60,708 bases of DNA from Psammoneis japonica (lineage: Eukaryota). The stretch spans positions 186,001 through 246,708 of the forward strand of contig QPGO01000123.1 in the NCBI GenBank assembly GCA_008632985.1, read 5' to 3'. The position numbers and the translations under genes were made by a program. Below, piece after piece: positions 13,150 to 51,334 of this stretch. Numbering within the stretch: position 1 is the stretch's first letter; each line of letters opens with the position of its first letter. The notes below the pieces were generated by a model. That model had not been told where the DNA came from, made no database searches, and was given only the letters and a program-made list of their open reading frames with translations.

Positions 13150-16100
13150 TCATGCACTGGCACCCGTGCCGGTGTCATCCCTCTTCGTGCGCTCGTTGTA
13201 AATTTCAGTGTCGATGGTGTCGGAGGCCAAGTACCGCCACACATGAACCTGCGAATCCAAGAAGCGATATGATTAGAAAGTTGTTGGAAGAACTGCTCAA
13301 GTAACCCCAACCGAATCGTGGCTTGGACTTACTGTTTTTGTTTGACCATATCGACGAATACGTCCAATTGCCTGTGTCTCGTACGCATCATATTGCTGAC
13401 GGCTATCAACAAGCAATGGGTGGACCTGCCAGCAGAGAGCGCAAAGCATTGCAAATTTTGTTAGACACGTCCCGTCGAGAGCCGAGAAAATCAAAGTCAA
13501 CTTACAAATACTGCGTGGTTGCAAGTGGTTAGATTGACACCCGCCGACGTCTCATCATCTAGCGTCAGCAAAAGACATCTGGGGTCGTTCGCACCAGGCT
13601 CGACTTTCTGGAGTACGTCCAACGCCTTTACCTGTTTTTGAACGGAACCCTTCACTTGAAGCGTCTTGACATTCCGTTTTTCAAGCGCTTCCGCTACCTT
13701 CTCCTTCAAGTCCTGAAATTGTACGAAAACTATGACTCGATCTCCATCCTGAACTAGACTCTGCACCTTGTCGACAATCAAAGTCAACTTTGCTCCATAC
13801 TGTCCCCCACCCGGGCCCAAGTCCAACTTTGCGCCAAGACTGTCTGCGGGAACAACATGGGCGCGTTTTATCTGAGCTCTACACGACGGGTCAATGCAGG
13901 TTTCTGCGTCGGCACACTTGTTTAGACAACGCAAGCATCCCACGTGCCCGCAGCAAGATAAGACTCCAGAGTTTTCCATATCGATTCCCTTCTGTTTCAT
14001 GCACTGTGGCGAGGGGCAGCTAATGGTCGTCTCCTGCTGAAACTTGCATACCCATTGAAAATAGCGCAAACTCCGAATACGGCCACAGAGCTCTTTGCAA
14101 TCAGATCTGACAGTATGCATATGGTTTCGCAACGCCCATTTCATTTCTACCAGAGAACTCTCGTCTTCGTCTTTTTTGGAGGAACGCTTCCGCTTCTTGC
14201 TTCCTTCCTCGTCTTTTGGAATTTTATCTGACGCAGCTTCAACAATCTCTGCCAGCTTGCTGTGAATTTCGTCGTCCGCGCCACCCGGAATGGATTGGCT
14301 CAGCTTCACATCAGCAAGGAAAATTGACAAAGTGTCTTGAACCTCATCCTTTTCGGTTCGGGGACAGCCTTCCCAGTCCGGTTGTAGCTACATGCAGAAC
14401 AATGCGAGAAGACGAATGAGCTAAGCTACAACGGACTTATGCGCGCAAAGCGTTGAGACCGCATGAAACCCTTACCGTCAAGATGCATTTCCGCTGCTTC
14501 AGTGCGCTGACAATCGAGTCTTTGAGCTGGTTTTCACATTCCTGTAGCTGTTCTTGTCGAAGCTTTGCGATAAACGAGCAAGTTTCAGCCGCTGTTGCTT
14601 TTTCCTTCCCACACATGTTGAAGTGAGAACACCGCTTCAATAAAGCCTCCTCAGCAGACGCTGAGTTTTCAAGCACCTTTTGCATCCGATTGTCTCTGTC
14701 TGACTGAGTTGCCTTTTTCGATTTCCGAGCTTTCTTCTTGTTCATTTCTAAGCTCTTTAGATGAGTTTCGAGCTCCAGATAAATAGCTTTTTCCGCCGGG
14801 GGGAGGTCAACAAATTGCATGTGCTCCTCGAACTTAATTTCGTCAATCTCGGCAATGTTTTGTCTAACAAATCGATCGAGAAAAAGCTGGGCAACCTCGT
14901 GTCGCCGTTGATGCCATTGAACTGACCGCATTTCGAGCATTTCGGAGAATTTCTCAAGACCACTCGTCTCGCTGGAATTCTTGTTGCCTCGCCTGGTACC
15001 AGGTAAACTTTCATCTACGCCCAAATGGATGCCTAAAAGCTTTGCTAAGCTTTGAACGTCGTTGAAATTCTCGTGAGGTGGCGTGCCTGACAAGCACCAA
15101 CGAAAGGAAGACTTGAGACCAAGAACAAGCGTGAGCACACGAGCTCGGTCCTTCTTTTCTTCCAGGTAATGAAACTCGTCTACGGTAGAGATGTAAATAC
15201 AACATGTGGTCAGCGCGAAAGAGAAATGTTCGTGCCGATTGTGCTCATGGCATCCACGTACCTACGACAATTCTATTCCAAAAGAACATTTCCAGGGGCG
15301 GGCATTTCATTTTGCTACTGTCTTTTTTGACTTGAGCCGTCGATAAACCCCATGGATCAAATTCCGTCTTGACCGTACCTGACTTGCCTTTGGCGCGAGA
15401 TGATGAAAGTTTTCTATCACGACCACTGCTTCCGACTTTCGTTTGCTCCTCTGAAACAGCTTTGTACACTGCTTTCTTGCCATCTAGACGAACCGTCTCC
15501 TCGACTTCTTTCTCTGAGTGTGCAAAGGAGTCTCTCTCGATGCAATCGAACACATTAGAACAGTCTCCCTTCAAAGAGACGACTCGCTCCGAGAGCCCTG
15601 TTAGGCATTCGTTGTAAACCGCATCAAAATGTTTGCCTCCCTTTCCGCTGGGTAAACTGCTGGGGTCAGCCCCGGCAAGCCGCGCCAATCTACGGAAGTA
15701 CAATTCCGAGCTGAGAACGGTGAAGTTCACAATGACAATGTCCGCTTCTTGGATTTCTTTCGACGTTATTTTGTTGAAGCCGGACATGTCTTTGAGAACG
15801 ATAACCCTTTTGCTTTCGCCAAGAAATTTCTTGACTTCGTTTGGCTGTAGATGCAAGGAGCATATTTTGCGGTTTGTTAGATTTTCAAGTCATCAGCACG
15901 GATACGAAGTAAGAAACGAAACGAGAAGGAGAACGTACCCACTGAGACATCAAATGACCGGGTACAATGACCAACGTTGCACGGGTGGACACGAATGAGT
16001 TACTGAGCTTTTCGAGAATCGCCGGCGGATCTCCGTTTACACTTGGAGCGGCATCGATGAGCCCAAGCGTAATGGCAGTTTTTCCATAGCCGACCTGGTC

Positions 16101-19100
16101 AGCGACGATTCCTCCTCGAACTAAAACAGGACGTCGCACTCTCGCTTCCGCACGCCAGTTCAAACTTGGTAGAACGCTCTCCGCAATCTCTTCTTCCATG
16201 AAGGGATCTTTGGACGATTCTTGCGACAGCATCCAAGAAAGGGAGCGGAGCTGCTCCGGTCGCAGGTTGTAAGCACTGAAATTTGGAGGTTGCTCGGCTT
16301 CAGGCGTCATTTTGTTGGATGTGAAGTAAAGTTTCGGAAAATTGCCAGAGCTTTTCTCCACGTGCGACACAATCCTCCAATGAAAACAGATTTCTTCTCC
16401 CGCAACCTTCGCATTCTCACGCTCCAAAGATTGTGGGAAGAGCCCCAAAGCGCGATTCGTGAGACTGTTGACGTTGCATCCAACCTGAAACTTCAATTTC
16501 TTGGCCGCATCACTGGCGTTCGTCACTCCTGATGCGGCAAATAGATGCACTTTCCACGGATTGGGACGTTTCTTCAACGCCTGCTCGTAAACCGAAGCCT
16601 CTTTGCCGTCCTCAATCGGAACAAACAGTTGCTTGCCTCCTTTGGACACGACAGACCATTTTACATGAGGCCTGACAGGAGCGCAAACCTCGGATGGATT
16701 CCCCTCCATTTTCTGACTTGTACTGCTTCCAATAGAAAGCCATTCCTGGCAAAATGCATCGGGGATCGACAACCTCGATGTCGCAAACGCGAGACTCTGA
16801 AAAAGAAAAGCACTTTTTTGCAAATGAACTTCCATCGTCTCACGTCCAACACCTCCACGCGCGCATTGCTTGTACAGCTTCTCACCGCCAGCCATTGGAA
16901 TGTCAGCGCTGAGAATCTCGGGACACCGCTTCCACCCATCAGGAGCCAAAGTAACGGAGAAAGTTCCTTGCTTTGCTGGGGACGAAACCGTGTTCCGTGA
17001 ATCGTCACTGATTACTATGATCGACACGTTCGCCTTGATCCACACAGGTGCGTATGCCCGAACCAGCTTCTCCTTTTCGGGAGTCACTTCCGACTCCACC
17101 GCAAACTCGGGACGGTATTTGGCATCGAGGCGAAGAGCGATGTCTCGGTATTCGCCATACTCCGTACGCGCACGACTGTTTGAAAAGATGTAGTAATCTT
17201 CCGCACCGAGAGTGCAACGACCGGACTCCAGGAAAAAGTACATTTGGTCTTCGTCACAATCGACTCTCTTGTGCAGCGATCCACAAGCTGCACCGCATTT
17301 AGGGAGCACGATGTATTCACCGTCTACCTTCTTATCTAGACATGACCCTCCGTTCGACTTCAATTGAATGGTCAACTTTTCAAAGCGCCTCTCCTTCTCG
17401 AACGCTCCTTTCAGTCCCAGTCTGGAAGCCCAGCTGCTGACAAGTTCCCCAGATCCCGTTATGGACAGCTCCACGGCAGAATCCGTGGGAAGCAACACCT
17501 CCCACTGACCACGCAAGAGGGAAGAGGCGTCAGCTTTAATAAGCATCCGGGCGACAGGTCGCTCCAATGCGTCTCGTAAGAGCCCTCGCTCGGATGGGGC
17601 CTGCGCAAACAGAAACCATTGAGCGCCAGTGAGAGAAATGCGCAACTCAACTCTTGAGCAACTTGCGCTTTCAAAATGCACAGTCCAGCAATTAAGGTTC
17701 CTCGTCACTTTCGAGAATCTGAATTCAGTAGACTTCGTTGCTGCATCCATAGCGTTTTTCCAAGCTTCCCACAAGGCCTTGTCCATTCCTTCGGGCATGT
17801 TGATGCTTGAAATACAGTCAAAGCCACCTAATTGAAAACGCATGGGAAGCAGTTTGAGTAGCTCCGCACGAAATGAGTCAGGTTGAATACGCGTCTTTCC
17901 ACAATCTGTAACTGGGCGAAAGTCGTGCTCTTCGTACTTGCGAGGTGGAAAGGCGAATGCTGCGCTCGACGTCTGGCCACACTGCTGGCACGAAACGAGA
18001 GAACTCGTCGGAATGCACTTGTCGTATCCTTCGACAAGGCACTTTCTTGCAGACGAATCAGCGCGCTGGAAGAAGTCTCTAGAAATCGTGCAGTCGGGGT
18101 TGGCAGGACCAAGGCAGAGTGGTGAAGTACGATAGTCCCCCATATCCATGACAATTTTTATTTCGTTGCTTGCTGGGACCAAAGGTCTTGGAACAAGATT
18201 GGGGACAATGGCAACCCCTTCTACGTCTTTGATCCTTTTCTGCCTTTCGCAAAGTGCACTATGCCCTAGCAATAGAGCAGTGAGCATGCACGCCCCAACG
18301 ACCGTAGTGGACATGGCGTTGCCTGCTAAATCTTTAAGGTTCTCTTCCGTTTCCTTTGTCAAGAGCAGATCATCTGCCGGAATCCCTTGTAGAAGAAGAA
18401 GTTCCTAAACGGCAACAAATGCAACAAAACTCGAACTTGTAAGTAACGATGAATGATGGAAACGACACGCAAGACTTCCAATGCAAAGAGCATAACAGCC
18501 ACTTCAACGCGACAAACATAGAGAAAAAGGAACGCTGAGTCGTAGATAAGTGAGTGCATTGCAAAGAATCCTACACCGCAACCCGCGCAACGAAACAAAA
18601 TACAGCAAAGCACATCGAAAATCAAAACGCTAAAGGACGATACAACGACCCAGCAGAAATTTCAACCCAGTGCAATCAACGAAACTGCGTTCATACCTCG
18701 CCAACAAGTACACCTCCCCTGTTCGTAACGTACGGGACTCCGGTCGGAGTCAGGCATTGACAGAGGCCCAATTTTCCTGTGCAATAGATAACAATCTTGA
18801 TGAGGACAGTTCATCAGCCTTTTTTCACACATGTTCAGTACGTACCCATGGTATCTCGATCAACGTTTTGACTCAGGTTCCAAACACAACTTTTGTAGGT
18901 GCAGTCCACACCCTCCTTCGCCAGCCGCAACGTATTAATATCGCTTAAATCATGAATTCGATTCACCTGCGCGTTCATCCATTCGTTCCATGCGAAACTT
19001 GGCATTGTGGTGTTGCCGGAATCGGACCATCCAGTCAAAGGCCGCTGCGAAATGTGCAGTTCCGTAAGATGGGTGAGAAATTACGATATGATACAAAGGT

Positions 19101-21123
19101 GGCGTTTGAGACATAAGGACATTATTGATCTAGCTCACCTTGTCACCAAGCTCTTCAATGGTACGTTGACGCAAATGTCGGGATTCACACTTTGCCCAAT
19201 CCGTTCGATTCGTCGACGATTCCGAGCCAGCGGATAGTCGGGCTCTACCGCGAAGCACACGAGGATCGTTGTTGGGAAGCATAAAGGCATCTAGCGTGGC
19301 CGACGCCGGGCGTTGTAACTGTTGAAGCATGTATTTCCATTTTTCAACCGTCCTGGACGACAGTGCTTTGCTACCCTTCATCACAGCAAAGAGGTATCCG
19401 CGTTGACGTGTGTGCGGCTACAGAAACGTAAGCAGAAACAGCGGTATGAGGCACGAGAACGCAGCAAGAGAAATGCACATGAAAATGGCGACTCACAATA
19501 TAGTATTGCTTTGTATCCACAGTCTTGAAGGTTGCAAAATACCCCATACTCTCAAAGAGCTCTACTTTTTTCGGCCATGGCGCTCCATAGACGTTCTCAA
19601 GAATGACAATTGGAGGCTCCGCTTTCTTGACCCACTCAATCATGCCCCGAAACGTCTGTCCAGATTCTCCTTTTTCTTCAATAGTTTTCTGTGTAGGGAA
19701 GAGAGAGATATAGCAAGATTGAGAAAACGACAATCCATACAAAAGACAATCTTGTTTCGAATCCATTTCGCATACCTTTTCGTTGTTGAGATTCGAATAG
19801 TCCACACACGACGTTCCCGCCACAAGCATATCGACACAGCCCGGTGTATTGGGCACATTCGCGAGCGATCCATACGCCGTGTAGGCTTGATTTTTTCCTA
19901 GCTCTCGAATGTCACGAAACAATCGAGGGGGCTGAAAGTTGCGCTCAATGTAGGCTTGCTTGAAGGGTTCAATCTCGCAGCTAAAGACGTGTTCAATCAA
20001 CAACTCGCCGTCCATGTCGTGTTGTTGCGCATAATCTTGAATCGAGTTGGACAACATGTCGAGCGCCAATACGGGCGATTCGGTTCCAGAACACATGGTG
20101 GCGATGCGGAGTGGACGGTCTTTGAGTTTGAGCAACAGTGGCTTGAGCATATCCGGATCATTGAGCTGCTGAAAGACCATGTCGTCAAACATGGCCTGTG
20201 GATGAGAAATTATGGGCAAATCGTCGCCGCCTGTATAAGCCTGCTTGACGTTCTTCTTGCCCGGGGTGGCAGTAGCTTTCTTTTTCTTTTTGCTTTCAAA
20301 CTTTCCAGAAAGAAAGCCCCAGCCACTGGCGGCGAGAGGCTTTTTCTTTGAGGCGGTAGAAGACTTGACAGTCTTTGTCGTGGAGTCGGAATCGTTGGAG
20401 GCTTTCTTCGTGGCGGAAGTCTTCTTTTCCGGCTCCTTCTGGGCTGCTTTTGCCTTCTTGGAGGGCGGTTCATTTTCTTCCTTACACGATTCCAACTTCT
20501 TGACGGATTTGTTTACGGATTTCGCCTTGTTTGAGGGAGGCTCGTCCTGAATTGATTCCTCTTCGTCAACCTCCTCATCTGACAACGACTCTTCAATCAC
20601 TCTCCGTTTCTTCACAGAACGAACGACCGGTGTTGCACTCTGAGATGACGTCAAGCAAAAACAATCACGTGCGTGAGATACACTGTAAGCTTCGATACAA
20701 AGACCTTATGATCGTCTTCTTATGATAAACTTATGATCGTCTTCGTGTGACAGGCTTACCTCTTCCTCCTCGTCGTTCTGATTGATTTCTTCATCCGAGG
20801 CACGTCGTTTTGAGCCCGAGTCATCACCGAGCCCAACTTCAATCTGCAGGTAGTCAAAGCAGCAAGTGTGAGGTGTAAGTCTTACGGTAGAATGCTGTCG
20901 ACTTATGGTGTCTTCTTGATGCTCTTACCTTTTGCTTCTGCTCGTTAACATCAACACTACTGCTGTCCTTGTCGTCTGCGGTCAATGACACGTCGCTTGC
21001 CACCGTGGAGGGCGTGCTGCTGTCGCTTCTCGTCGCTTTTGCCTTTGGCGTTGCTTTCTTTGAGAAAAAGTTGAGCAGACTCTTTTGGCCGGCGGCAGCG
21101 GCTATAGGCGTCTTCTTGCCCAT
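13150..21123 (-). CDS. DNMT5: DNMT5-type cytosine-5 DNA methyltransferase fused to SNF2 ATPase with RING finger; 13 exons, ~2239 aa
   Basis: Hand-spliced exons 21123-20929, 20843-20760, 20639-19776, 19688-19497, 19417-19139, 19044-18846, 18776-18697, 18404-15939, 15844-15262, 15179-14476, 14387-13506, 13425-13333, 13248-13150; all GT-AG, total 6720 nt in frame. MTase motifs ATMCSGTESP, FSCEIEPFKQAYI, AGTSCVDYS (catalytic Cys), ILENV, IPHTRQRGY, LQGIP, LAGNAM. SNF2 motifs GGIVADQVGYGKT, VVDEFH, RWCLSGTP, GVNLT, QAIGRIRRYGQ. RING CCGHVGCLRC...CIDPSC. Confidence 0.93.
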
Positions 21124-23340
21124 GGTTGCAACAACAACAGCACAAATAACAACAAGTGATGAATGCTACTGTGGGCCCCTACTTTGCCTGCAGAGATGCG
21201 TTCTACACCGATTTTGTATGGAGATCCTACGTAGGATCCTTTTGGTTTTTTGGCGCGCCCTTCGCACCACCTTCGCGCGTCAATCAATCTTATTCGAGTT
21301 AGCCGATCGTGCTAGAATGACGAAGTCCTTTCAATCAATCAATCAAGCGATGGCAATGCGACGGACATGGCATGGAGCGCATGGCTTTATTCGTCAGTTT
21401 ATTCTTGTTCTCATTCATTTCAGTCGAGCTTTAAAATGGCAGTTGCCATTTCACCACGATGTTGGATCTTTGTTGGCACAACTCACAAGGCAGCTGTGCA
21501 GAAGCAGAGGGCAGTGCAGGCTTGAAAGGCACGCGCCACCAGCACAGCCACACCTGTGTGTCATCACACATGCACTCTCAAATGTCACCAACAAAAGTGG
21601 CAATGGCAATGGCAATGTCCTCATCATCATTGTTGACAGAATGAAAGCAGGTTTGTTGAAAATGGCCACACACTGTCAGTGTCAACAACAGCGGGCTGAG
21701 GGCGTTTTGTTGTTTGTCACATTGTGGCAGAGAGCCCGCTGCTGATGCTGAGCACAGGTGTGGCTCACAATGTTCACGGAAAGGCTTTTTCTGTGATTGC
21801 CAAGAAATCAACTCAGCGTGTCAAGTGGAAAGGGCAAAGCAAACTCTCCCAGCATTGCTCGTCACCACAACAACTCCATTGCCAGAGCCTGTGTGCTGAA
21901 GGCACAGGGCAACCATCTTTCAAAATGGAGTGAACTTGCAGCTGCCTTTTCCAAGTGCAGAGAGCCCATTGCAAGCTTGATCCAAATGATGTGGCTTGTT
22001 GATTGAATGTGGCTGCCATTCATGGACAGCTGAGGCATGGTGATGAAATGGTGAAGGCAGCTCAGAAAAGCATTGAGGTGGACAAATGTTTTGTCAATGG
22101 ACACGTCCATTTAGCCACCACCTGCTGGAGGTTGGATGATTTACCCCACTGCCTTGAGTCTCTCTAACGGGGACTGCAAGTGAATGCAAACAATTCTCAG
22201 ATGTCATTGGGTGGAAAAAAGAGACTTTGACAAGGTGCCAAATTAATTTGAGAAATGTTTGTCTCTTGCTGAAGGCACTCATGGTTCACGAGACTCTTTC
22301 TCAACTTGTGTCAGAGGACAGATCGGCACCTGTCATTGGAAAAGAGATTGAGTTTTCCAGAAGCTCCAAGGGTGCTTGGAAAGGCCCAACAAGAAAAGGC
22401 TGTTGGGTGGAAACTGCAAATGCACCAAGGTTGTTTGCAAAGCCACAAATGATGATGTAAAGAGGAGTCAGAGTTCCAAAACCTGCAACTGCAGCAGCAC
22501 TCAAATGGCTTGCATCTGGTCATGTGCCACCCCCCGACCCCTGGAACCCTGATGCTCCCCTCACACCAGAGCTGCAAATTGTTTGTGAAGGCATGCCAGA
22601 TCACATTGGAGGATGATCTAAGGCATTTTGGAGGGGATCTGCAGAAGATCTTTGTTGGAACTAATGGATTGTAGATGCAACGCACAAGGGCTTTCCACTG
22701 GCAAATTACATTGGATGGCAAAAAAATGTGCAACCCCCCTGCAGATCAATGCACCCAGTTGGACCTGCCACTCAGCGTGCCATCATCAAGAACATCATTG
22801 ACAAATGCAGGCCATGGACAAATCAAGCGGAGCTCAATCACATCACATTGAATCAAGCTCCAATGCACCTGAGTCAAATGGAAAGAAAATGGAGTCCCCC
22901 AGGATGGTCAGAAATCCCTGCTTTAGAGGCATCAGTGTTCATTGCCTCAAAACGTTGTTCATGGATGAAGTCAAGCAAGCTGGATTCACCAATGAGGTGA
23001 AGGCACACAAACTTGAAGACCTTTCAGGCAAGCCAGGGCTTGTCTGATGAAAGGGGGAAGTTGACACCTGTCCAATGCAAGGGTTGTGGGAGTGGTGCAT
23101 GCACACAGTGTTGAAGGCAAAGGCAGTGTTGGTGATGTGGCTCACATGCTTTCATGTGCTTGGGGCAAGTTGCTGCTGTTCTTGACTCATGCCACACTCA
23201 TTGACAAAGAATGCACATCCCCATCTCTCTTGACCTGATGTGACGCTTTTTTCTCATGGAACATCTGACAAGGCACAAAATTGGCAATGCTGTTGACACC
23301 CTGGCAAACCACTGTAAAGAGAATGTCAGAGTGCCAAAAG

Positions 23341-25065
23341 CACAGAGGTGGCAATGAGTGAAAAGACTCCCCAAAGACTGGGACAGCAATGCAACATGTG
23401 TGCAGGCAATCAAGAATGAGAGAAGCAAATCTCAGAGAGATCTGCTCAGCTGTCTGAGTCTGACCATCATCCACAGAGTCAGGATCTGACACCCTCCCCT
23501 GATCTGCAATGTCTTGCAAGACAATGCAGGTCACAAAAAAAGAAGAAATGTGACAGCATGCCATGAAAAGCAACCTTGCCAATGATGCAAGGCACCAAAA
23601 AACTGGGTCACACAAGAAACGGTCAGGCTCAATGCCCAGTGTGTTGCGAAGAGATCACAGTGGGCAACAATGTGACCAAAAAGTCTTCAACAGCAGCAGG
23701 GCATGTGCTGATCCACAGAAGTCTTTGACAAAAAACATCAATGGCAAATTCCAACAAATCTTCTGGACAAAACAAGTCCTGTGCCAAAGAGTGCTTTTGT
23801 TGTTCAACAAACAATCAATTGCCAAGGGACACTCTGGTGAGTCACACTGTTGCCAACACTCATCAGGACAGATGGGGCCAAAAAATTGAAATCCACCATG
23901 GCAGCAGATGATGCAGTGAAAATGAAGCAACAATGACCCACTTGACAAAACAACACTTCTGCCACAGTTTGCTTCTCCCCTGAAAAACACATTGGACAAA
24001 CAAAATGCATGGCAAAAGTTTTCAACATGGAAGAACATTGAAGCATTGGTGCAGGTGAGCATGGGATGACATTCAAATCATGAAACCAAGTGAGGCATCT
24101 TGCTCAAAGCTTGTCTTGTGGCTTGAATGCAGTGTGCCAGCAGTGGTCCCAAGATGTCCCAGCTTTGCTGTTGCCAGAGCTGCCGTGGGTGGTGTTCTTG
24201 CAGTTCTGGTTGATTTGGATGCAAAAGGCACAGAGCCGAGCTCAGTCCAGTCCAAAAAGTTGCCTTTCACATCTGGGTCAAGATGGATGTGAGCTGTTGT
24301 GATGGTTGTGACAACTTGCATGTGTCCTTGTGATGCAGACTTTGTGATCACCCTCTGCAAGCTTGCGGCTGTTGCAAGGCATGTGTCTCACCTGGTTCAG
24401 ATGGGGTTGAGACCTTGAAGGCGGCTCTGTCAATGGTGTCTCTTATGGCCTTTTCATTCACAGCATCTTGGGCATGCAGTGGGATGCTCTTCTGGATGAC
24501 ATGGTCTCTGATGATGTCCAGAAAATCAGACTTGGGGATGGCGCAATTTGCATCATCAAACAAAAATTGTCTGATTCAAGGATTGTGTCTGAACAAAGGT
24601 TGTTTAGACAAGTGCTTGTGTGAGAGTGCCAGGGATGATCTTGAAAACAGAATTGCATCTTGCTGAGTGTTGGCATGACACCTGGATTCATCAGCATTTT
24701 GCTCATGGTGCACCACGGGAAAAATCCTGGTCATGCTCCTGTGGAATCATGGCATGTTTTCACGGCAAAAAAATTGTCAGACTTGAGCTCAAAAAAAGTT
24801 GCAGGACCAAAAATGGCAGCACTGGCTTGTTTCATCTCACAAAATGATCAAACACAAAAAGAATTGACAGCACAGAGAAATTGTGACCAGCACAAGGCCA
24901 CGACCTGTCAGTGCACCAAAAGGACAGAGGCAGCAATGGGTGAAAAGACTCCCTGAAAACCTGCACAGTGATGCCAAACATGTGCCAGTGATTGAGAATG
25001 AGGAGAGAAGCAGATCTCAGAGAGATCTGCTCAGCTGTCTGGGTCTGACAGTCATCCACAGAGTT
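23341..25065. repeat. Dispersed diverged duplicate (~23341-23480 vs ~24920-25065)
   Basis: Shared acagagg...gcaatg..tgaaa(a)gactccc...agagatctgctcagctgtctg(a/g)gtctgac..tcatccacagagt. Confidence 0.7.
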
Positions 25066-25399
25066 TTGATGCTGAGGGAGAAAGACCTTGAGGTGGCAGC
25101 CAAATGCTGAATCTTTCTGCATGGGACTCATGCAGGGCTGCGTGAATTAGACACCAGAAGTTGTGTAGAAAAAACACAAAATCACCGCACTCATCCGTGA
25201 CCAAAACTGGTGACAAAATTTCTGTTTGTCGTGCAGCGAATCCTGCAGAAATTCTTGAACAGATTTTCCTGGGACTCGAAACCAAACATGACTTGCAGGC
25301 AACAAGATGATGATGACAACCTTTCACAACAAGACCCAGGAAATCATTGTTGATGGGGATTGTGCAGCAGACATCAGACATTGCCATGCCACCTGCAGA

Positions 25400-27070
25400 G
25401 CAGTCACAGATTCGTGAACTGCTCTTCCATGCGGCGGGTGGTGAAGCTGCAACAAGATCTGGCTTGTCCTGGGGTTGGTGAAGACTGAGATTGAGGACAG
25501 ACAGGCCAGTGTTGAAAAGGATGAAGAGACAATCCTTCAAAGTGAACGAGAGACTGGCTTTGCAGCTGTGAATGTGTTGATCAACAACCAGCTCCGTGAA
25601 TGGGTTTTGAACATCATTTGTGGGTTTGTCGCCAATGAAGACAACTCACAGTCACCAATGGTTGGGCAACTTAACAAGTTCAGGACTGGAAACAAAGCCA
25701 GCATTGTGATGATGGATTTTCATTGGTGTGGTGTGGCTCTGAAATTGTTTCACATGAGTCTTGAATTTTCCAAACAAGACATGTTTGGGAGCAACCATCC
25801 CTCCCTGGCATCCACTCACCACAAAGTTGGCTTTGCCCACACACAAAAAAGGGAGAATTCAATGCTGCAATTGAGAACACATCATGACAGCATGCAAGGT
25901 GCAAAAGTTGTCACTCTCAGGGATGGATCACCCTCACACTGCCAATTCATGCAGAGCCTTGGCCCATCTTAAGTTGGCAGCAGGAGAAACAGTGGAAGCA
26001 GATAAAATGGGAATCAAATCCCCGCAAATTGAAGAGGACATCCTTGATGGGTGAGGGAAATTGTGGTTTGCCCTTTTGCACAAGCCAGTTGGGCAAGCAC
26101 ATGTGAAACAAGGAAACCTTGTTGAAGGGATTGTTGAGTGCCAGTCATGTCATGCTTCACAAGTGGAGAACTTTCAGGGCTGTGATCATCCAGAGGTTGC
26201 ATGCACCCTTTGTGACATTGGAGCTGCTCTTTTGTGTAATGGTGTCTACAAGCATGCCCTGGCTTGTTTTCTCAAAGCCCAACCAGTTGTTGAGAAAGTC
26301 TGTGGATCCACAAATGACAAAGCATTGTTGCACAATGCTCTGGTTCTTAATGACATGGGCACATGCATGAGCAAAGTGGGCATTGTGGATGAAGCGCCCG
26401 AGGCTCACAAAAAGAGTTTTGAAATGCAATTGTTGGTTTTGGGTGAGGTTCATCTGCTTGCAGCTGATTTTCTCAGCAACTTGGGGGCTGCTTGTCCCAG
26501 CAGGGGAAGAATGAAGAATCCATTGTGCTGCATGACAGGTGCCTTGAGACAAGAAAACAGTTGCATGATGTGGGACATTGGCTCATCAGTCAGAGTCACT
26601 TAGACCTTGGAGTGGTCCACCTCAATGTCAATGACACATGCATTCTGCAGATTGAGCATTGGAAGATGCCACTGAAAATCACAAGACTTGTCTTTTTAAC
26701 AACTCAGGCCTTGGCCCAAAGCTGTGTTTGTCCAAAGAAGCGAGGCCTCACTCTGAGAGCCCATTGAGTTTCATGGGGCATTCAACAAGCATGTTTGTCA
26801 GCGAACTGTGATGAAAGATGTAAAAGCATCTCCTGCATGGCTCATGTCTTTTGGGTGAGAGAGCATGTCACACTGACGGGGTTAACAAGTCATGCCCAGA
26901 TGAACTCTCAGTGTGATGAAATGGTTGAGGTGCATGGAAAGAACCCCAGTGGTTGGTTCATTGTCAAGCTGCACAGAGTTGAGGGATCGCCATTGGAAAT
27001 GAAGAAGTTAAAGCTGGCAAATCTGATGCTTGGTGCTTGGCACAAAAAGTCACAATTTGCACAACATTGA
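25400..27070 (+). pseudogene. Decayed kinesin-light-chain-type TPR protein gene
   Basis: Fragments FGSNHPSLASTHHKVG, DHPEVACTLCDIG, LVLNDMGTC...LLVLGEVHLLAADFLSNLGAA fit TPR_10/12-type repeats, with stops, frameshifts and His/Cys at expected Tyr positions. Confidence 0.7.
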
Positions 27071-29259
27071 TGTTGCACTGTGCTGCAAGTGCAGGCAGTG
27101 GCATGCACATTTTTCTTTTGAATTCATGATGACTTCATAAAATGCAACGCATTCTTCAATCTTCAGGGCAAACCAGAGCCACTCTTTTGAGAACACAACA
27201 AGGACATGCATCACATGCAAAGTGCTCACACTCATTGCCAGAAAGGGAGGACATGGGCCAAAATGCAATGAACCACATGCACAATTGTGTGCAATGATGG
27301 GGGAAAGAAGGGTTTGCCTTTGAAGGAAATTGTTTCCAAGACAGTTGACTTTGTCTTTAAAACTCCAAACTGCCCCATTCTCACCCTCAAGTCTCCACCA
27401 AATGGCCACACTGTGTGGACCATCTACATTGGTGCAAAAGCAACCAAAACAACCACAGCAAGCAACAGACCTTGACCTGTGATTGAGGCAAACAAATGCA
27501 GCAGAAATGACATGTTTCTGGATGGAACCATCAAGATGAGCCACCCTGTTGGTTGCAGTCACAACAAAAAGTCAGCATTGGCCAACTTGATCCTTGCAAC
27601 CTCCACATTGTTTGCACAGTGCTTTTCACTGCACCCACTTGGACAATGAGCAATTTTTTCTGTGGCAACATGGTTGTTTGTTCAACAAGGAGGTCCAAGT
27701 CATTCATTGGATGGTCCAAGCACTTGAGCAGCAGGCAGGTCAAACCAAGTGATTTTGGAGGAGAGTTTCACATTGTCTCATCATGTTGCTTGTTGCACCA
27801 ATGCACAACCTGAGACTGAGGTGAGCAGCAACTGAACATCAGCAGAGCTCTGGTGGAAAAATTTGTGTGAAATTTTGAATTTGAAATGCCCGCAAATCAC
27901 CCACCAAGCAAAAGGATTCCCAAGTGGAGCACAGCTTCCCAGCTGTTTGTCAATTGCCGTCAGCATGCAGATGTGCACTGTGCCCCCCCTCCCCCCAACA
28001 AAATGCCTGTTGATCTGCCAATGATGTCCTTCTGCTTTTTAACATCATCATGACAAATGCCTCCAAATTAACTGGAGCTGTTGTTTGTCTCATTGTCTTG
28101 ACAAAAAAGTTGTTGTGAACCCAAAGTCCCCATCAACAGGATTTTGCCTCAGCAAAATTGGCTCCTGAACAGAGAAAAGATTTGGCCAAGACACATCCAA
28201 CATCTCCCCAACAACATTGTCATGCAAACCAGCACAGCTGGCCACAAGGCAGCTGGCCATTGGTTCTCCATGTGTTGATCACCCAACAATGCACCACCAA
28301 AGAAGAAATTGTCATCTGCATCATCATGAAGTGTCCACAGAACCACAAGTTGATGGCACCTGCAGCTCTGTCAGTTGTCACTGCTTGCTCAGGACATGGC
28401 AACTTCTCAGGTTCTCATGGGGGGGAAGCCATGGCATGCACAAATGCCCCTCAGCCATGCTCTATCCAGCACCACTGTTGTCATTTTACAATCAATTGGC
28501 AAGTCATTTTTTGGCAAAGCTTTGTTCTCCTTTTGTTCTCTTTGTTGCTTTTGGCATTGAGCCCTTTCACAATTTCCACACAGCAAAAAATCCATGATTT
28601 GCACATGGCGTGGACATGACAAGACTCTCATCTTCTGATGTGTCAGATTTTGAGTTGTCCACATCTGGAAAATGTTGTGGCTCTTGTTTAAAACTTGCTT
28701 GTGCCAAACAAGAACCCTGGGTTCTTAACAAGTGCTTGTCAATTGTGAACAAAGCAAACCCAATGATTGTTTTTACATTCCAAGTGGGAAAATGTGCTCA
28801 AACTGCAGGTCTCATTGTTTGTTCAATCTTGACAAGATTGCAACCACAATGATTTTGACATGACTTGGTTTGTGTCCACAATCAATCAAACACAAAACTT
28901 GTGACTTGCAATGCATGTTCTTGACAAGGGTGCAATTGCAACTGCTTTCTAACATTGCTCATTTCTGACAATGACAACATTCATTCTGTGTCTCATTGCA
29001 ATGCTTGCACATTGACTGTGTGCTGATTGCAGTGTGATTTGTGCCAGCTGTGTTTTGTCATTCTGCAGTGAATGTGTTTTTGCTTCATGTTTCCTGCTCT
29101 TCCCTCCCAGGCTCTGTCTTGTCTCCTGCCAGTGCTCCCATGCTGCAGTCATTCTCTGTGTTCACCACATGATGGTGTGACATTTTGCTCATTGCGTCAT
29201 CCCTTGCAACTGCTCTCACTCACCACAACCATGTCATTCACTCCATGTCATGACCTTGT

Positions 29260-29540
29260 CTCTTTTGCTCATCATGCCAGTTTGCCAAAGCTTTGCCTGC
29301 AAAGAAGAGAAAAGGGCTTGCAACAGACCAGAGCATTGCATGTGTCTTGTTTTGAATGGGCTTGGCTTGGCACAAATGGCGTTTCTGCTCACCTTTGTGC
29401 ATGACTTTGTTCTTTTGTTCATTGCACCAGCAGTTTGCCAAAGTGTTGCCTGCAAAGAAGAGAAAAGAGCACACAACTGAGGAGAGCATTGTGTGTGTTT
29501 TGTTTTGAATGTGCTTGGTGCAAACGCTGTTTGTGCTTGC
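29260..29540. repeat. Tandem duplication, ~153 bp period
   Basis: gtttgccaaag..ttgcctgcaaagaagagaaaag...agagcattg...ttgttttgaatg occurs at ~29280 and ~29433. Confidence 0.75.
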
Positions 29541-30283
29541 CATTGTGTGGCCCCTGCAGGGCCGTCTTCCCTTCTGGCTCTCCTTGCATGTCAACATGTC
29601 TGAGTGGAAAGATTGGCAAAAGTGCCAGTTGTTTGCATTTGCCAACTCAGTTCCTGCCTCTCTCTCACCTTGTGTCCTGCATTGTCATCCCCCCCCCCCC
29701 CCCCTCAGCTCTTCTGTTGCCTTCCCTTCCTGCTGTCATTGTCATGATGTTGGATGAGCACTGTGTTTTGCATTTTGTGTCTTGTGAGGCAATGATGATT
29801 TGTGCTTTTGCAGCAAAGTCAAGCCTGTCTGCCTGGTGATTCCTGTCAGCATTGCTTTTTAAGTGACAGCTCTGTTTTAAAAGTCCAAACTCACATTGAG
29901 TTTTGAAGGTTTGAATGATTTTTGAAATGACTTGAATGAATCATTCAGTCATTGAGGTTTTGAAAGTGTGTCACCATCTCATTTCAATGCTGCAGGACTT
30001 CAATCTCCATGTGCAATCTGCACTTGATGCCCTCACAACCGCATTTTCTTTTTGGTGTGTTGCAACAATGCTGCCAAAACAATGTGTGAACTCCCCCCAT
30101 GGAGGTGGTGGTGGCCACCCTTGTGCTGCCAACTGTTCCAACACCAGTGGTGCTCTTGGCCATGGTGGTGCAGGTTGGGCTGACACATCTCAAGCTCAAC
30201 CTCAGCCACAACAGTGCAGCAGGAGAAGCCCTCAGAGAAACCAAGGCTCTGCTGCCAGAGCTGCTGCAGCAGCACCAGCTGAC

Positions 30284-30760
30284 AACCCAGCAACCACTGC
30301 CACTGCTGCTGTCTTTGTCAACAACAAAGCTGCTGCCCACCATGCCAATGTGACCAACAAAGCCCCCCAGTGCTCTCCAGCCATTCCACCCAAAGATCTC
30401 AAATTTCCCATGCACATTGGCACAAAATTCCTGTGATTGTTGCTGCATCCCCTGGCACACAGTGGAGTCCACTGTGGCCATCCCAAGACAACTGAGCACT
30501 TGCATTGTCACGCAGATGGCTCCAACCCAGCAACCACTGCCACTGCTGCTGCCTTTGTCAACAACAAAGCTGCTGCCCACCATGCCAATGTGACCAAAGA
30601 CCCCCAGCACTCTCCAGCCATTCCACCCAAATGTCTCAAATTTCTCATGCACATTGGCACAAAATTCCTGTGATTGTTGTTGCATCCCCTGGCACCCAGT
30701 GGAGTCCACTGTGGCCATCCCAAGACAACTGAGCACTTGCATTGTCATGCAGATGGCTCC
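30284..30760. repeat. Near-perfect 240-bp tandem duplication
   Basis: aacccagcaaccactgccactgctgctg at 30284 and 30524, with near-identity continuing to gcagatggctcc. Confidence 0.9.
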
Positions 30761-32065
30761 CTTCTCTCTGCAAGGGTGTGGTGGCTGGTCCAAAGCCAGT
30801 CATGTCAGAAAAAAGGGGCCACGTTGACACAAGACAAGGCCTTTGCTCCCCAACCAGCAAGGTTGTTGTTGGCTCCCTGCCAGAGACACAATGGAGTCAC
30901 AAGGTCATTCAAAGACAACTGGGCACTTGCATTGTCACACAAAAAGCTCAATTGGTGGGGTGGCTGTGGCAAATCCAGTCATGTCAGAAAGAAAAGGGGC
31001 TGCGTTGACTCAAGACAAGGCTTTTGATTCCCAACCGTGGTTGTTGCTGGCTCCCCTGAGATGCAATGGAGTCAGCACCCAGTGCCATCCAAAGACAACT
31101 GGGCACTTGCACTGTCACACAGAAAGCTCTCTTGTCTCTGAAGGTGGGGTGGCTGGGGGCCAAAGCAAGGCAGTCATCAGCTGCGTCAGAAAGAAAAGGG
31201 GCTACATTGGCCCAAGACAAGGCTTTTCCTTCCCAACCATTGTTGCTGTTGCCTCCTGTGGACCCAATGGAGTCTCTTGTGCCCATCCCAAGACAACTTC
31301 TGAGTGCTTGCACTGTCACACAGATGGTTCCCTTGTCTTTGCAGGTTGCTTGTGGCTGGGCCAAAGAACCCAGTCATGTCAGAGAGACAAGGTGCTGCAT
31401 TGACACAAGACAAGGCCTTTGCTTCCCAACCATTGTTGTTGTTGGCTCCTCTGGGATGCCATTGAGTCACCAAAAATTCACAACAAGACAACTGAGCACT
31501 TGCACTGTTGCACAGATGGTTTTCTTGTCTCTGCAGGTGGGGTGGCGCTGGGCCAGCCCCAGTCATGTCAGAGAGACAAAAAGGGCTTTGTTGACACAAG
31601 ACAAATCCTTTGCTTCCCAACCATTGTTGTTGTTGTTGTGTTCTCTGGGACCCAATGGAGTCATTCAAGGCCATCCCAAGACAATGGAGCACTTGCACTG
31701 CCACACAGATGGTTCCCTTGTCTCTGCTGGTTGGCTGGACCACCAACAAAGCCAGTCATGTCAGAGAGACAAGGTGCTGCATTGACACAAGACAATGCCT
31801 TTGTTTCCCAGCCATTGTTGTTGTCAGCTCCCCTGGGACCTGTTGGAGTCATCCAAGGCCATCCCAAGACAATGGAGCACTTGCACTGTTGCACAGATGG
31901 TTCCCTCACTTGTCTCTGCAGGTTGCACGACTGGGCCAAAGCCAGTCATGTCAGAAAGAAAAGGGGCTGTGTTGACACAAGACAAGGGTTTTGCTCCCCA
32001 ACCATGGTTGTTGGCATGTCCCTGACAACCCAATGGAGTCCTCCAATGCCATCCCAAGACAACTG
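30700..32065. repeat. Diverged tandem array of about 7 units of ~180-200 bp
   Basis: Recurrent ccatcccaagacaa..gcacttgcactg..cagatggttcc..ccagtcatgtcaga..ttgacacaagacaa..cccaacc, anchors near 30716, 30905, 31085, 31283, 31485, 31671, 31859, 32049. Confidence 0.85.
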
Positions 32066-33269
32066 CACACATCCTTTGCCACATCTGTGGGCCTGATCCT
32101 TGCACACCTTGTGCAGCTGGGCATCTGTCATCAAACTCACTGCCAGAATGTTGACCACCAAATTCCATGGGCAGCAGCATCCACCAGAGTGGGGTCACCA
32201 ACATGTCGGAGAGACATGGCCAAGTTTCCTGCCACTGGTTCTGTGGCATTGTTGTTGTCACCATCATTCAGAGTCTTCTCCAGCTCATTGCATGGTGCAC
32301 AAAAAATCCCTCACCCATCAACAGCAATGCCAACATTGCCACCCACCCTGCCGTTGTCCACAAAGGTGCCAACCTGCTTGCTGAGAAGGACAGGATGGGT
32401 GTGCTTGTCAAGAGTGAAACCAAGGGTGAAAAAGTTAACCAAGTTGTGTCATTTCATGCAGAAGCAGGTTTTTGGTTCTGGTTGCCTCCAAAATGGGGTG
32501 CAGCAGTGGCAGATCCAGGGCGTTTGTGTCCACTGGTGAGCTTCACCACCAAAATTTGAAAGTTCTGCCTCCTCTTGGGCAATCTCAAACCAGACTTCAC
32601 ATGATTTGTTGGGTTGCCGGAGCCCCCCCCCCCACACACACACACACTCAGCACGTCGAACAATTCTTGCAGAAGCTGTGTTTTGTCAAGGGTGGTGTCA
32701 ACAATCCACAAGAACTTGAACCACACTGATCAATTGAACATGAAGTGAACCCTTTGGAACAGAGGATGTGTGGCCAATGAAATGCAGCCATTGTTTTCAT
32801 TTTGCGATCATGGTGACAGGAAAGATGAGACATTCTTTCCAGTCTCTGTCATCTGGCAATGGCTTTCCAAGCAGCAGCACCATTGCTTGCTTCATGAGAT
32901 GCAAAGACCATGCCTTGGTCAGTTTCTTTGGCAACCACAACAAGAACCCAAGCAACTCTTCCTGCTGTTCCCAGTGTGTCTCTTCCTGCAGAACTGGAAC
33001 TGTGCTTGCCAAAGTCATTGTCAGGGTTCAGGCCAAAATGGAAAAAAGAAGAACACTGGGGATGCTGTTGTTGTTGTTGTTGTTGTTGTTTTCGTCATCA
33101 GACATCCAACCAGGGACAGAGTGGATTGTGACAGGTGTGTGCCATTGTTGTTGGTGGATGTTAGATTGGAGGATGAGTTGTGCAGTGTTCAGCAGAGAAA
33201 AAGGACAAATGCAGCAAAAACAGAGCAAAACAAAGGCACAGAGCTGACAAGTGGAAGGAGAAGGGGACA

Positions 33270-34575
33270 AATGAAGCTGTTCTTGAGAAGTTGAAAACAA
33301 GGACAAAATGAGCCACACAGGTGACTTGCACAAAGACAGAGATCTGCAAAATGGAGGGAAAAGGGAACAAACACAGCTGTTGTTGACAAGTTTAATGCAA
33401 GGACAAAATGAGCCACACAGGTGACTCACCACAATGCTTTTGGGCCGCCTCCGCATGGCCATTGCTGTGATTTTTGACAAAAACGCTGACAACCCACAAA
33501 ATCAAATTTTCTTCTTTCCAAAATGCAGACATGTGACACAACTCAAGTCAACCATGGGATCGGTTGCAACAACAGCAACATTTGTCACCAAGTGCAAGAA
33601 ACACCTGGAGAGTGTGTTAAAACCTCATTGTGATCACAAGGTGTGGGTCCCAAAGAAAGGCATCTTCATTCAATGCCTCCAATTGTCATTGCAATGACAA
33701 ATGTTTTGAAGGGCCAAAGTGGAGTGCATTGTGCAGGCACACTCATGACTTGGACAGCGCATTTGACAAAAATGATGAGACAATCCTGGGCAGCAGTGTC
33801 ATCAGGGAGGTGTCAAAAATCCATGTAAGTTCCAGAGGAGCCCCAAGCAGCAGTGGACCTTGGGGGTCCTGTGAATGTGCCAGCCAACCAAATTGATTCA
33901 CAGCATGGCTTGGGTTGTTCACGTTGTCTGCAAAGAGGCATTTTCAAGTGGCCGGCGCTTTTGAGATTGGGGTCAAACTGTAGAAAATGCCACCTGCAAC
34001 AGGTGAGTGACAACAGCTGGCCAGAACCCTTCTGTCGGACACTCATTTTCATCATTTTGCATGCATGGAGTGATGCACAGTTTGTCAATGATGCAGATTG
34101 AATGCTTTGCAATGATCCAGAAAGCGTCTGCCACACAGAAGGGTGTTGAACATGAGCAACAGCAAGAAAGTCAATGAGCACAGTTGACCCCATTCAACCA
34201 TGAAAGTCAATTTGATCCAGCACTTGGTGAGTGCACACCAGGCAGCTCTCTCTGCTGGGCTCCCAGAGCAATGGAAATTGTTGCTGCAATGACAAGAGCA
34301 GCTTTCTCAAAAAGCAATTTGACAGAGAGTGGCACACAGACTGGTGCTGTCAATGGCCAATTGTGGCTGGTGGCTGCACGCCATGACCTCAAGGAGATGC
34401 AACATGCCATGACAGATTGAACCAGCAAACTCCATTGTGCAGAGAGAAAACACTCACATGAGCCACGCAGGTGGCTCAAACAAAGACAGAGATCCGACAA
34501 ATGTGGGGGAAAAATGAATGAAGCTGTTCTCAACAAGTTTAAAATGTGGGGACAGAACAAGCCGCAAAGGTGACT
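33270..34575. repeat. Short dispersed repeat, about 3 copies
   Basis: ggacaaaatgagccacacaggtgact at 33301 and 33401; related gagccacgcaggtggctcaaacaaagacagagatc...atgaagctgttct at ~34460-34530. Confidence 0.55.
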
Positions 34576-35518
34576 TGATGAAATGAGCAAAAACATTTGA
34601 TCATTTGTGACTCTTGAAAACTGTCGAGAAACAAAATTGATGTCCACGCAAATGGAAGATCTGTGGAAATGATCAGCACAAACATGAAAAAGTTCAATTG
34701 TTGGCAAGCGACGCTCTGGCTGAGCACGGAAACATGATGTTGCAGACACAGGCAAAATGACACTGCTTGTTTTCCCTTGTTGCTGCACCCAAAATCATTT
34801 TCAAAATTCTCCTTGTTGTCATCAGACATTGCACGGTGTGGAAACACACTTGTTGTGCAAGCCTCGTGAGTGCGGATCAGTGTCAGAGGTGCACGCTCAA
34901 TGCTGTGTTGGAGGGAGTGCAGGAGTGCTGCTTCCCGTGCAAAAATCTTGATCTGGAGTGCCGTTCCAACTGGTCACGAGATGCGAGAGACACTGCATGT
35001 TGTGGTGTCGGAATTTTTGACAACGATGAATTTACATGCAGCAGGGCCCTGCTGAGTGGAGTGGTTTGTTTTTTTGGATGAACACTGAAGGGCCCGGCAA
35101 TTGCATGTACAGTGCTGCACAGTACAACACATGCATGCCACCCAGTGCGAGGCAGTCTAACGCTCATGTGTTTTAACTGTCACGAGAAGCCCGTTGGTGA
35201 CTGCATGCGTTTAAATTCGAATTCAATAACGGGCCTATTTCAACATATATGTGAACGATTATTTGATGTTGTGATCGTTGATTTTTGAATGGTATATTAA
35301 AAATTTCAGTACTGATTACGAGAACCACTATGGTAATATTATGCCTCCAAGCGATGATTCGATTCTTCACCTTTCCAAGCCACATCCAATCATAACATAT
35401 TTACACGGTAACATCGGACGGAGTTCATCTCACAAGTTTGCGCTAAAGCAAGCCTTTGTCATTGATATTCTATTTGCAATTTCTCTAAAACACGTGTGCT
35501 GTACTTTCGAACTCGACA

Positions 35519-41480: not shown

Positions 41481-41599
41481 GTGCTTCACCGCGGCAAAAA
41501 ATTCTGACCGATGTGACGACAGTGCGCCGATGTCGACAACTTTTGCTGGCAAGCACATTCGCTGCACCCAATGGGCATTAACTCTTTATCTATACAACC

Positions 41600-51330: not shown

Positions 51331-51334
51331 GTCA

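Follow-up and report, generated by a model that had tools for sequence, protein, structure and literature searches.

Coincident loss of CG and TA dinucleotides from discrete blocks of a diatom genome points to two context-specific transition processes

We analyzed a stretch of 60,708 nucleotides of contig QPGO01000123.1 (positions 186,001 to 246,708 of the forward strand) from the Psammoneis japonica assembly GCA_008632985.1; this stretch is referred to below as the window, and all coordinates are given in its own numbering. Five blocks, which together make up approx. 57% of the window, have been almost emptied of CG and TA dinucleotides by conversion to TG and CA, and they are separated by gene-bearing islands which keep both. 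The conversion is symmetrical with respect to the two strands, follows a simple rule of neighboring bases in the case of TA, and is confined to domains whose sharp boundaries are common to both dinucleotides. The explanation that we consider probable is that the blocks are silent DNA in which two context-specific transition processes, acting within common chromatin domains, have run almost to saturation.

Results

Composition and boundaries of the blocks

Dinucleotide observed/expected ratios (o/e) were scanned in sliding 1-kb windows across the whole stretch, counts were pooled for the blocks (32.6 kb) and the islands (24.2 kb), and the edges of the blocks were set by maximum-likelihood change points fitted separately for CG and TA (Table 1). 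In all five blocks the 1-kb windows had o/e values of 0.02-0.3 for CG, 0.00-0.14 for TA and 1.7-2.0 for TG/CA, while in the islands CG was close to 1.0 and TA ranged from 0.35 to 0.7. The pooled counts gave the same picture: the blocks retain 315 CG sites (0.97%, o/e 0.17) and 115 TA sites (0.35%, o/e 0.05), compared with 5.71% (o/e 1.00) and 3.56% (o/e 0.52) in the islands, and CA plus TG account for 22.9% of block dinucleotides (TG/CA o/e 1.84) versus 14.5% in the islands. The largest block, block 3, which is the block under study, contains 85 CG and 47 TA in 13.1 kb, with 1490 TG versus 1527 CA.

These results bear out the original prediction, made by inspection of the sequence, that five stretches of the window are poor in CG and TA and rich in TG/CA, and the edges placed by the change points lie within 0.5 kb of those proposed there. 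The accompanying claim that non-coding island DNA keeps its TA was also correct (o/e 0.63-0.69 in windows 11501-13000, versus 0.05 in the blocks).

Table 1. Coordinates of the blocks and of other features of the window
Feature	Position	Strand	Remarks
Block 1	1..3462	.	CG change point 3300, TA change point 3462; left end cut by the window; 25 CG and 5 TA in 3.1 kb
Block 2 (short)	6842..8231	.	Left edge CG 6842, TA 6846; right edge TA 8149, CG 8231
Block 3 (block under study)	21433..35108	.	Doubly depleted core 21458-34834; edges 21433/21458 and 34834/35108
Block 4	41561..45557	.	Left edge CG 41561, TA 41792; right edge 45555/45557
Block 5	47870..60085	.	Core 48045-59615; TA depletion out to ~60085; edges 47870/48045 and 59615/60085
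Duplicated ~230-bp segment, outside copy	41256..41480	+	Island-type DNA; CG and TA kept; proxy for the ancestral state
Duplicated ~230-bp segment, mutated copy	42888..43113	+	Inside block 4; 76% identical to 41256-41480
Tandem array	30674..32062	+	Block 3; ~190-bp units, ~7 copies (TRF); summed depth up to 3127 vs ~60
Frameshifted TPR_12-type repeat gene remnant	26055..26764	+	Pfam TPR_12; within a single-copy stretch of block 3
DNMT5-type CG maintenance methyltransferase gene	13500..20705	-	Pfam DNA_methylase, SNF2-rel_dom, zf-RING_5, Helicase_C; island adjoining block 3

The blocks and the islands do not differ in GC content (0.479 and 0.477, respectively), the four pyrimidine-purine steps sum to 24.3% in the former and 23.8% in the latter, and the remaining 12 dinucleotides are near-equal in frequency. 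CG plus TA fall by 7.95 percentage points and CA plus TG rise by 8.44. We conclude that transitions turned CG and TA into TG/CA, since GC, the sum of the pyrimidine-purine steps and the other 12 dinucleotides are the same in blocks and islands. The balance of trinucleotides is a rough one (within ~20-45%), with TAT plus CGT lower by 21.6 per kb and TGT plus CAT higher by 20.5 per kb. The loss of C is limited to CG, the other C-containing dinucleotides being near their island values.

An independent assembly of a public read set (X1) also yielded contigs with the blocks, at a depth of ~57-69 versus 59-61 for the islands and with 0-3 differences per long piece, which excludes a polishing or consensus artefact of the assembly. 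These contigs represent one sample, possibly the same as that used for the assembly, which leaves formal room for an artefact at the level of sequencing chemistry; a second read set (X2) covered 3 of 30 bins. The scaffold is a gapped one, with runs of N at 5274-5664 and 36607-37342, and an artefact of sequencing or assembly could be looked for on that account. We know of no artefact, however, that turns TA and CG into TG/CA within sharply bounded domains, and of all the explanations considered in this study we regard this one as the least probable.

As a background control we scanned 396 kb of metagenomic contigs (58 loci surrounding relatives of the island RCC1 gene). Of their 708 1-kb windows, not one was both low in TA and high in TG/CA; repeats are seldom present in such contigs, and the control is uninformative on other diatoms. 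The TA o/e of the islands (0.52) is below that of the nine closest metagenomic loci, L001-L009 (0.61-0.84). This lower value could reflect codon usage or a faint genome-wide trace of the TA-erasing process.

Direction of the mutations

The direction of change could be read most directly from a duplicated segment of ~230 bp, one copy of which lies inside block 4 and the other in island-type DNA (Table 1). The 20 CG sites of the outside copy correspond in the block copy to nine CA, seven TG and four retained CG, and its ten TA sites to four CA, three TG, one TA (within a TTAA) and two other dinucleotides. Changes in the reverse direction amounted to one for CG (CA to CG) and none for TA, and 34 of the 44 mismatches between the copies were transitions. 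The outside copy is very rich in CG (20 sites in ~230 bp).

Further evidence was provided by repeats lying within the blocks. If ancestral CG or TA sites were mutated on different strands in different copies, the copies are expected to differ by TG in one and CA in the other. In the tandem array of ~190-bp units of block 3, 13 sites vary between TG and CA from unit to unit (2-5 sites for each of the control double-transition classes), and pairwise counts of such differences reached 63, versus 5-14 for the control classes; one site is still TA in one unit, and one is still CG in two units. Four other in-block pairs aligned with mismatches by BLAST showed one, seven, three and three TG-versus-CA differences, and a fifth pair consists of a 57-bp identical match only. 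Copies located at block edges (3146-3400 and 34458-34575) have kept CG and contain no TA.

A second, local A:T to G:C process at TpA, acting beside the conversion of CG to TG/CA, had been postulated in the original prediction. It is upheld by the mass balance, by the duplicate (TA to TG/CA, seven sites versus none in reverse; CG, 16 versus one), by the frequent occurrence of TG versus CA at the same site of in-block copies, and by an identical spectrum reported for mutation-accumulation lines of Bigelowiella natans (Mettrop et al., bioRxiv 10.64898/2026.01.13.699255). Mutation of TA to TG/CA in situ is very probably the way in which TA was removed from the blocks.

Sequence context of TA loss

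Over all blocks TG (3778) and CA (3699) are nearly equal in number. Of 33 local windows, each 1 kb or shorter, nine deviated at p<0.05 and the other 24 showed no strand bias.

Each TA site contains two adenines, one per strand, and the sites were therefore classed by the 3′ neighbors of both. Retention relative to the islands was 0.90 for the A/A class (TTAA), 0.32 for A/G, 0.14 for G/G, 0.077 for A/Y and 0.044 for G/Y (Y, C or T), and in the Y/Y class it was zero, set against 248 island sites. A model with three parameters, which lets each strand be hit independently, fits all six classes (chi2 4.31, 3 degrees of freedom, p 0.23), with survivals of 0.93, 0.38 and 0.08 for adenines followed by A, G and Y, respectively; uniform loss of TA was rejected (chi2 375). 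The relative rates of loss for Y, G and A are approx. 35 : 13 : 1, so that TAY vanishes and TTAA survives. The spared TTAA sites number 39 and are present in all five blocks. TAY was converted to TGY over CAY in a ratio of ~2:1 and TAA mainly to CAA, and both of these outcomes are predicted by the context rule.

Judged from its sequence context, the footprint is that of a lesion affecting one base of one strand within 5′-T-A-B-3′. A mirror lesion, on the T of V-T-A, would fit equally well, because TA is palindromic and A to G on one strand is indistinguishable from T to C on the other.

CG loss and the DNMT5 gene

The change points for CG and TA are 2-25 bp apart at three of the nine edges and 82-470 bp apart at the remaining ones. 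TA loss extends further out than CG loss at four edges (by 162, 274 and 470 bp at right edges and by 175 bp on the left side of block 5), and CG loss further than TA loss at two (by 231 and 82 bp). There are thus edge zones, at 3158-3460, 34466-35033 and 59573-59857, in which CG is near normal and TA is still absent. The two scars thus occupy common domains but result from separate events, and the process acting on TA appears to be the faster or the wider-spreading one. Within the blocks, residual CG and residual TA were not significantly correlated (59 windows of 500 bp; rho 0.21, p 0.10).

The loss of CG also depends on the 5′ neighbor. Retention fell from 0.233 to 0.12 and 0.068 as the number of strands reading TCG rose from none to one and two (chi2 35.9, p 1.6e-8), and a 5′ A had no such effect (retention 0.227 for A on both strands). 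This ~2-fold preference for a 5′ T was measured against coding-rich islands, and we regard it as a lead.

The island adjoining block 3 carries a gene for a DNMT5-type CG maintenance methyltransferase (C5-methylase, RING and SNF2 ATPase; Table 1). It consists of several open reading frames (ORFs), split by introns or frames, its own CG and TA contents are normal, and it lies next to the largest block. PDB chain 7r76_A is the sole match of both of its large ORFs, to which it is collinear, with E values of 1.1e-110 and 8.7e-67; the chain, named "DNA repair protein Rad8" by its depositors, is one that we take to be the Cryptococcus DNMT5. Judging from these similarities, the organism encodes DNMT5. 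In Phaeodactylum tricornutum CG methylation is lost without DNMT5a and transposons are its main targets (PMC9998398), and DNMT5-dependent CG methylation of diatoms and Cryptococcus is treated further in PMC12344493. In diatoms, only transposons and repeats are described as carrying CG methylation (Hoguin et al. 2023, PMC9998398; PMC12344493).

Content of the blocks

Self-BLAST revealed no block that is a copy of another; it matched only the tandem array and a few short duplicated stretches. The units of the array are 70-80% alike, and since the summed contig depth reaches 3127 versus ~60, the array belongs to a high-copy satellite family of the genome. Nearby, positions 30283-30760 contain a 237-bp direct duplication (94% identical).

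The original prediction had described the mutated DNA as repeat-targeted, and this holds for part of it only. Several parts of block 3 (22.9-24.2, 24.85-25.5 and 28.1-34.6 kb) are multi-copy, with summed depths of 245-3127 versus ~60. Others (21.6-22.9, 24.2-24.85 and 25.5-28.1 kb) are equally mutated and single-copy at ≥90% identity, a test which is blind to duplicates diverged by more than 10%. One of the latter contains a frameshifted remnant of a tetratricopeptide repeat (TPR) gene with 8578 relatives (best E 1.6e-47). At the 12 positions where the consensus of 150 homologues has Tyr, the remnant has His or Cys in five cases, Tyr in one and other residues in six.

This TPR_12 domain was the sole Pfam domain recovered from block DNA in three scans. 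No transposon or viral domain was found among the 149 ORFs of at least 110 aa in the window or in six read-through frames of block 3. A scan of 150 block ORFs of 72-109 aa (out of 153 in that size range) detected none either. For the 453-aa read-through ORF 54726-56084 (-) and for ORF 50671-51360 (-) there were no relatives among proteins of near their length.

The translations of the blocks had been predicted to be poor in Tyr and rich in His and Cys, as was indeed observed for nine long ORFs (Tyr 0-1, His 7-35, Cys 9-28; a tenth, which starts within island DNA, was left out of these ranges). TGA is nearly the sole stop codon of the blocks, and long, Tyr-free, His/Cys-rich ORFs such as 54726-56084 (-), 44032-44883 (-) and 52949-53650 (-) are found. 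ORFs of at least 200 aa number 13 in the blocks, versus 5.7 ± 2.3 in 100 second-order Markov simulations, and this excess is largely due to the erasure of TAA and TAG stops. Gene callers would probably report such ORFs as orphan proteins. Taken as part of the explanation given above, and with the same good but incomplete confidence, the blocks would be silenced, repeat-rich junk DNA containing a satellite array, segments present in many copies and one or more dead TPR genes.

Discussion

A model of two processes

We propose that the first process would convert CG to TG/CA, most simply by deamination of 5-methylcytosine placed by a DNMT5-type maintenance methylase. The second would convert TA to TG/CA by changing A to G (T to C on the other strand), hitting each strand independently at 5′-T-A-N-3′, and would be the same process as the one observed live in the mutation-accumulation lines of B. 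natans. Both would be confined to the same chromatin domains, presumably methylated heterochromatin, and both would be near saturation.

In the second process, a TadA/ADAT2-like enzyme brought to silent chromatin may deaminate the adenine of DNA to hypoxanthine. To the idea that a DNA adenine deaminase is the agent of TA loss we give somewhat less than an even chance. The process may further serve as an irreversible genome defence. A broader proposal is tentative and, in our opinion, rather unlikely as a whole: an ancient chromatin-targeted DNA adenine base editor, common to diatoms and chlorarachniophytes, would rewrite silent or invading DNA at 5′-T-A-B-3′, possibly also methyl-C in TCG, and would act together with DNMT5 as a "methylate, then mutate" defence across the stramenopiles, alveolates and Rhizaria (SAR).

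Several observations weigh against this model. The direction of TA loss is given by one duplicate (seven events) and otherwise by composition relative to the islands, and the islands, being mostly coding, are only a proxy for the ancestral state. Other copies in the genome, with 90-99% identity to that of the window, showed a mixture of changes (among 40 inspected differences, ten between CG and TG/CA and three between TA and TG), and no unmutated "young" copy was seen among them; for this reason some repeat families, taken one by one, may have inherited their TA-poverty. The connection between the CG loss of the blocks and 5-methylcytosine is one that we infer, and the data do not distinguish adenine deamination from a thymine-based route. 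The replacement of Tyr by His or Cys in the TPR remnant is suggestive only, the test being a weak one, and, given that no transposon or viral domain was found in the three Pfam scans, a defence against invaders is only a possibility here.

Alternative explanations

Both scars might be the work of one enzyme, a 5′-T-directed TadA/ADAT2-like DNA deaminase acting on the A of T-A and on the (methyl)C of T-C-G, with the products at methylated CpG and at A escaping repair. Both lost bases do prefer a 5′ T, the loss of A requiring T-A absolutely and the retention of CG falling with the number of TCG strands and not with a 5′ A; the CG and TA domains coincide, and amphioxus ADAT2 is reported to deaminate DNA at TCG (C) and at A, as TadA-derived editors do C in TC (PMC10354150). 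The TCG effect is only ~2-fold, however, and codon composition of the coding-rich islands could cause it; there is no clear general loss of TC (o/e 0.96 in the blocks versus 1.12 in the islands, with TT unchanged), and the edge zones that have lost TA and kept CG point to two processes of different speed or reach. Moreover, the adenine context reported as preferred by the amphioxus enzyme BjADAT2 is GAA and not TA (PMC10354150), and we consider a single enzyme improbable. Somewhat less probable again is a lesion that starts from thymine. Modification of T at R-T-A in silent chromatin (e.g. hydroxylation to 5-hydroxymethyluracil, or a derivative resembling base J), or faulty repair, would lead to pairing with G and so to T to C changes. 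Thymine-modifying enzymes of the TET/JBP type occur in some protists, and, TA being self-complementary, the strand symmetry, the two-strand model and the equivalence of TAY and RTA suit thymine as well as adenine. Evidence for a modification of this kind in diatoms was not encountered, although no search aimed at it was made. The authors of the B. natans preprint favor adenine deamination, likewise without proof (10.64898/2026.01.13.699255).

The other explanations are considerably less probable than these. Lesions at pyrimidine-purine steps might be resolved to CA:TG by mismatch or base-excision repair, or by gene conversion, in heterochromatin without any dedicated enzyme, and the collapse of all four such steps onto CA:TG would agree with this; biased repair is very unlikely, in our view, as it leaves unexplained both the clean 3′-neighbor rule with independent strands and the ~1000-fold on/off rate in lines of B. 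natans (10.64898/2026.01.13.699255). Slightly below it we place an inherited composition, according to which foreign or selfish DNA (a virus, a transposon or a satellite) would have been poor in CG and TA on arrival, e.g. in a lineage avoiding restriction or sensing. Unmutated relatives of most block sequences were not found, and the multi-copy relatives in the genome are similarly TA-poor, both of which favor such an origin. It is nevertheless difficult to reconcile with the identical signature of a satellite, a single-copy TPR pseudogene and other DNA in five separate blocks, with the exact mass balance with island DNA, with the outside duplicate that keeps CG and TA, with the TG-versus-CA differences between copies, or with edges at which TA is lost and CG is kept. 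Editing of retroelement transcripts from A to I by ADAR or ADAT, fixed by reverse transcription, has still less in its favor. ADAR has a 3′ G preference, unlike the order Y > G > A observed here; the nearly equal totals of TG and CA, with little local strand bias, speak against an RNA intermediate, no reverse transcriptase, integrase or other retroelement domain was found in the three Pfam scans, and satellite DNA, a cellular pseudogene and block flanks were affected in situ. The 5′ U that ADAR-type enzymes prefer next to the edited A, as quoted in the B. natans preprint (10.64898/2026.01.13.699255), is the feature that does correspond.

Comparison with known systems

For the chlorarachniophyte B. 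natans, Mettrop et al. (bioRxiv 10.64898/2026.01.13.699255) describe TpA-specific hypermutation of integrated viral or foreign DNA. According to the preprint, 231 of 302 nuclear point mutations in the lines fell within two integrated viral regions, 230 of these 231 were A to G or T to C, and all of the GC-ward ones were on TpA; such mutations arose in some lines only, at ~6e-7 per site per generation (~1000-fold over background). The same source reports 124 TpA-poor, CpA+TpG-rich clusters genome-wide and proposes an ADAT2-like protein as the enzyme. The process, which according to the original prediction might be an undescribed one, has therefore been described already.

With values of 0.05 and 1.84, the blocks lie by a wide margin within the cluster thresholds used for B. 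natans (Rho_TpA ≤ 0.43, Rho_CpA+TpG ≥ 1.52; 10.64898/2026.01.13.699255), and runs of 3 to 13 kb pass both. The two cases, as far as the preprint describes its own, have in common the change of TA to TG/CA only, its occurrence on both strands, its confinement to discrete regions (with edges located to tens to hundreds of bp in this study) and the fact that genes of the clusters are mostly unannotatable. They differ in the host, which is rhizarian there and a stramenopile here, in the degree of depletion (TA o/e of 0.05 over 33 kb here, versus Rho 0.45 in a region of nucleocytoplasmic large DNA virus origin there) and in the viral or transposon domains, none of which is recognizable in the blocks. 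CpG depletion coincides with TA depletion in our case, whereas the term "CpG" is absent from the main text of the preprint. The rule TAY > TAG >> TAA is likewise absent from that main text, in which "trinucleotide", "flanking", "TTAA" and "diatom" do not occur; its supplements may hold context data. A literature search, which covered few subscription journals, did not turn up TpA hypermutation or a combined loss of CG and TA in any diatom, nor any account of CpG co-depletion with TpA hypermutation or of the TAB context rule.

The irreversible transition hypermutation of selected regions, the dinucleotide scar and the dead genes are reminiscent of repeat-induced point mutation (RIP) of ascomycetes. 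RIP changes CpA to TpA, as the original prediction stated in accordance with papers on RIP indices, and thereby raises TpA and lowers GC. In the blocks TpA is depleted 10-fold and GC is unchanged, and duplication is unnecessary, single-copy stretches being as depleted as repeats. The fungal RIP family was therefore excluded, on account of its opposite effect on TpA, the unchanged GC and the involvement of single-copy DNA.

The resemblance to the TadA/ADAT2 family lies in the sequence context only (5′ T, 3′ Y), the natural TadA substrate being U-A-C-G, which matches the TAY rule. We know of no natural TadA/ADAT2 deaminase that targets chromatin domains. When these enzymes act on DNA (BjADAT2, PMC10354150, and evolved TadA editors), A to I results in A:T to G:C and C is reported to be deaminated preferentially after a 5′ T (TC/TCG); the GAA context of BjADAT2 was observed in Escherichia coli.

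For the CG component, the TpCpG hypermutation of repeats in Pucciniomycotina (Horns et al. 2012, PMC3318451) offers a parallel, as it consists of C to T changes at CpG in repeats with a 5′ T favored, and TCG is lost here ~2 times as readily as VCG. In the Pucciniomycotina, as far as that source goes, no TA component is reported, and the effect of the 5′ T is modest and not strict in our case. CpG decay linked to DNMT5 (PMC9998398, PMC12344493) leaves CG to TG/CA as the expected scar, and the DNMT5 gene is present here; such decay alone cannot remove TA.

Significance

As far as the literature searched can tell, this is the second known case, after B. natans, of a targeted mutation process that erases TA, and its new elements are that the host is a diatom, that most of a 60-kb window is saturated, that CpG decay coincides with the TA loss next to a DNMT5 gene, that single-copy and cellular-gene-derived DNA is hit, and that the two strands independently follow the rule TAY > TAG >> TAA. 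A process that removes TA in chosen chromatin domains pushes A:T to G:C, contrary to the usual mutation bias, and was first reported in 2026, from one alga. The diatom case brings it to another major lineage, in which genetic tools are available (CRISPR knock-outs are established in P. tricornutum, PMC9998398), and ties TA loss spatially to CpG decay in a DNMT5 genome. The order TAY >> TAG >> TAA, with the strands acting independently, is a sharp rule that any candidate enzyme must reproduce.

If a DNA adenine deaminase were indeed responsible, it would be a natural counterpart of the laboratory adenine base editors and would represent a new class of eukaryotic genome defence. For annotation the consequence is a practical one: the blocks defeat homology-based methods over 57% of the window and, through the erasure of TAA and TAG, produce spurious long Tyr-free ORFs.

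Other genes and features of the islands

The Pfam domains of the island genes include a kinase, a SET domain, SNRNP27, RCC1, LRR, heme oxygenase and ferredoxin, and no deaminase was found in the domain scan of the genes of the window. The 120 best relatives of the RCC1 ORF include nine proteins named by organism, all of which come from diatoms, with identities of up to 54%, and for this reason the host is identified, by protein similarity, as a diatom that is not closely related to those named.

The SET-domain ORF (6008-6610, +; histone methyltransferase-like) is located between blocks 1 and 2, in a small island, and the position of such a chromatin gene beside silent blocks is probably a coincidence. 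Finally, a GC-rich, (CCG/CCA)n-like low-complexity repeat is present on both sides of a gap of 736 N (36397-36606 and 37343-37443), and it accounts for the odd o/e values of windows 36001-37001.

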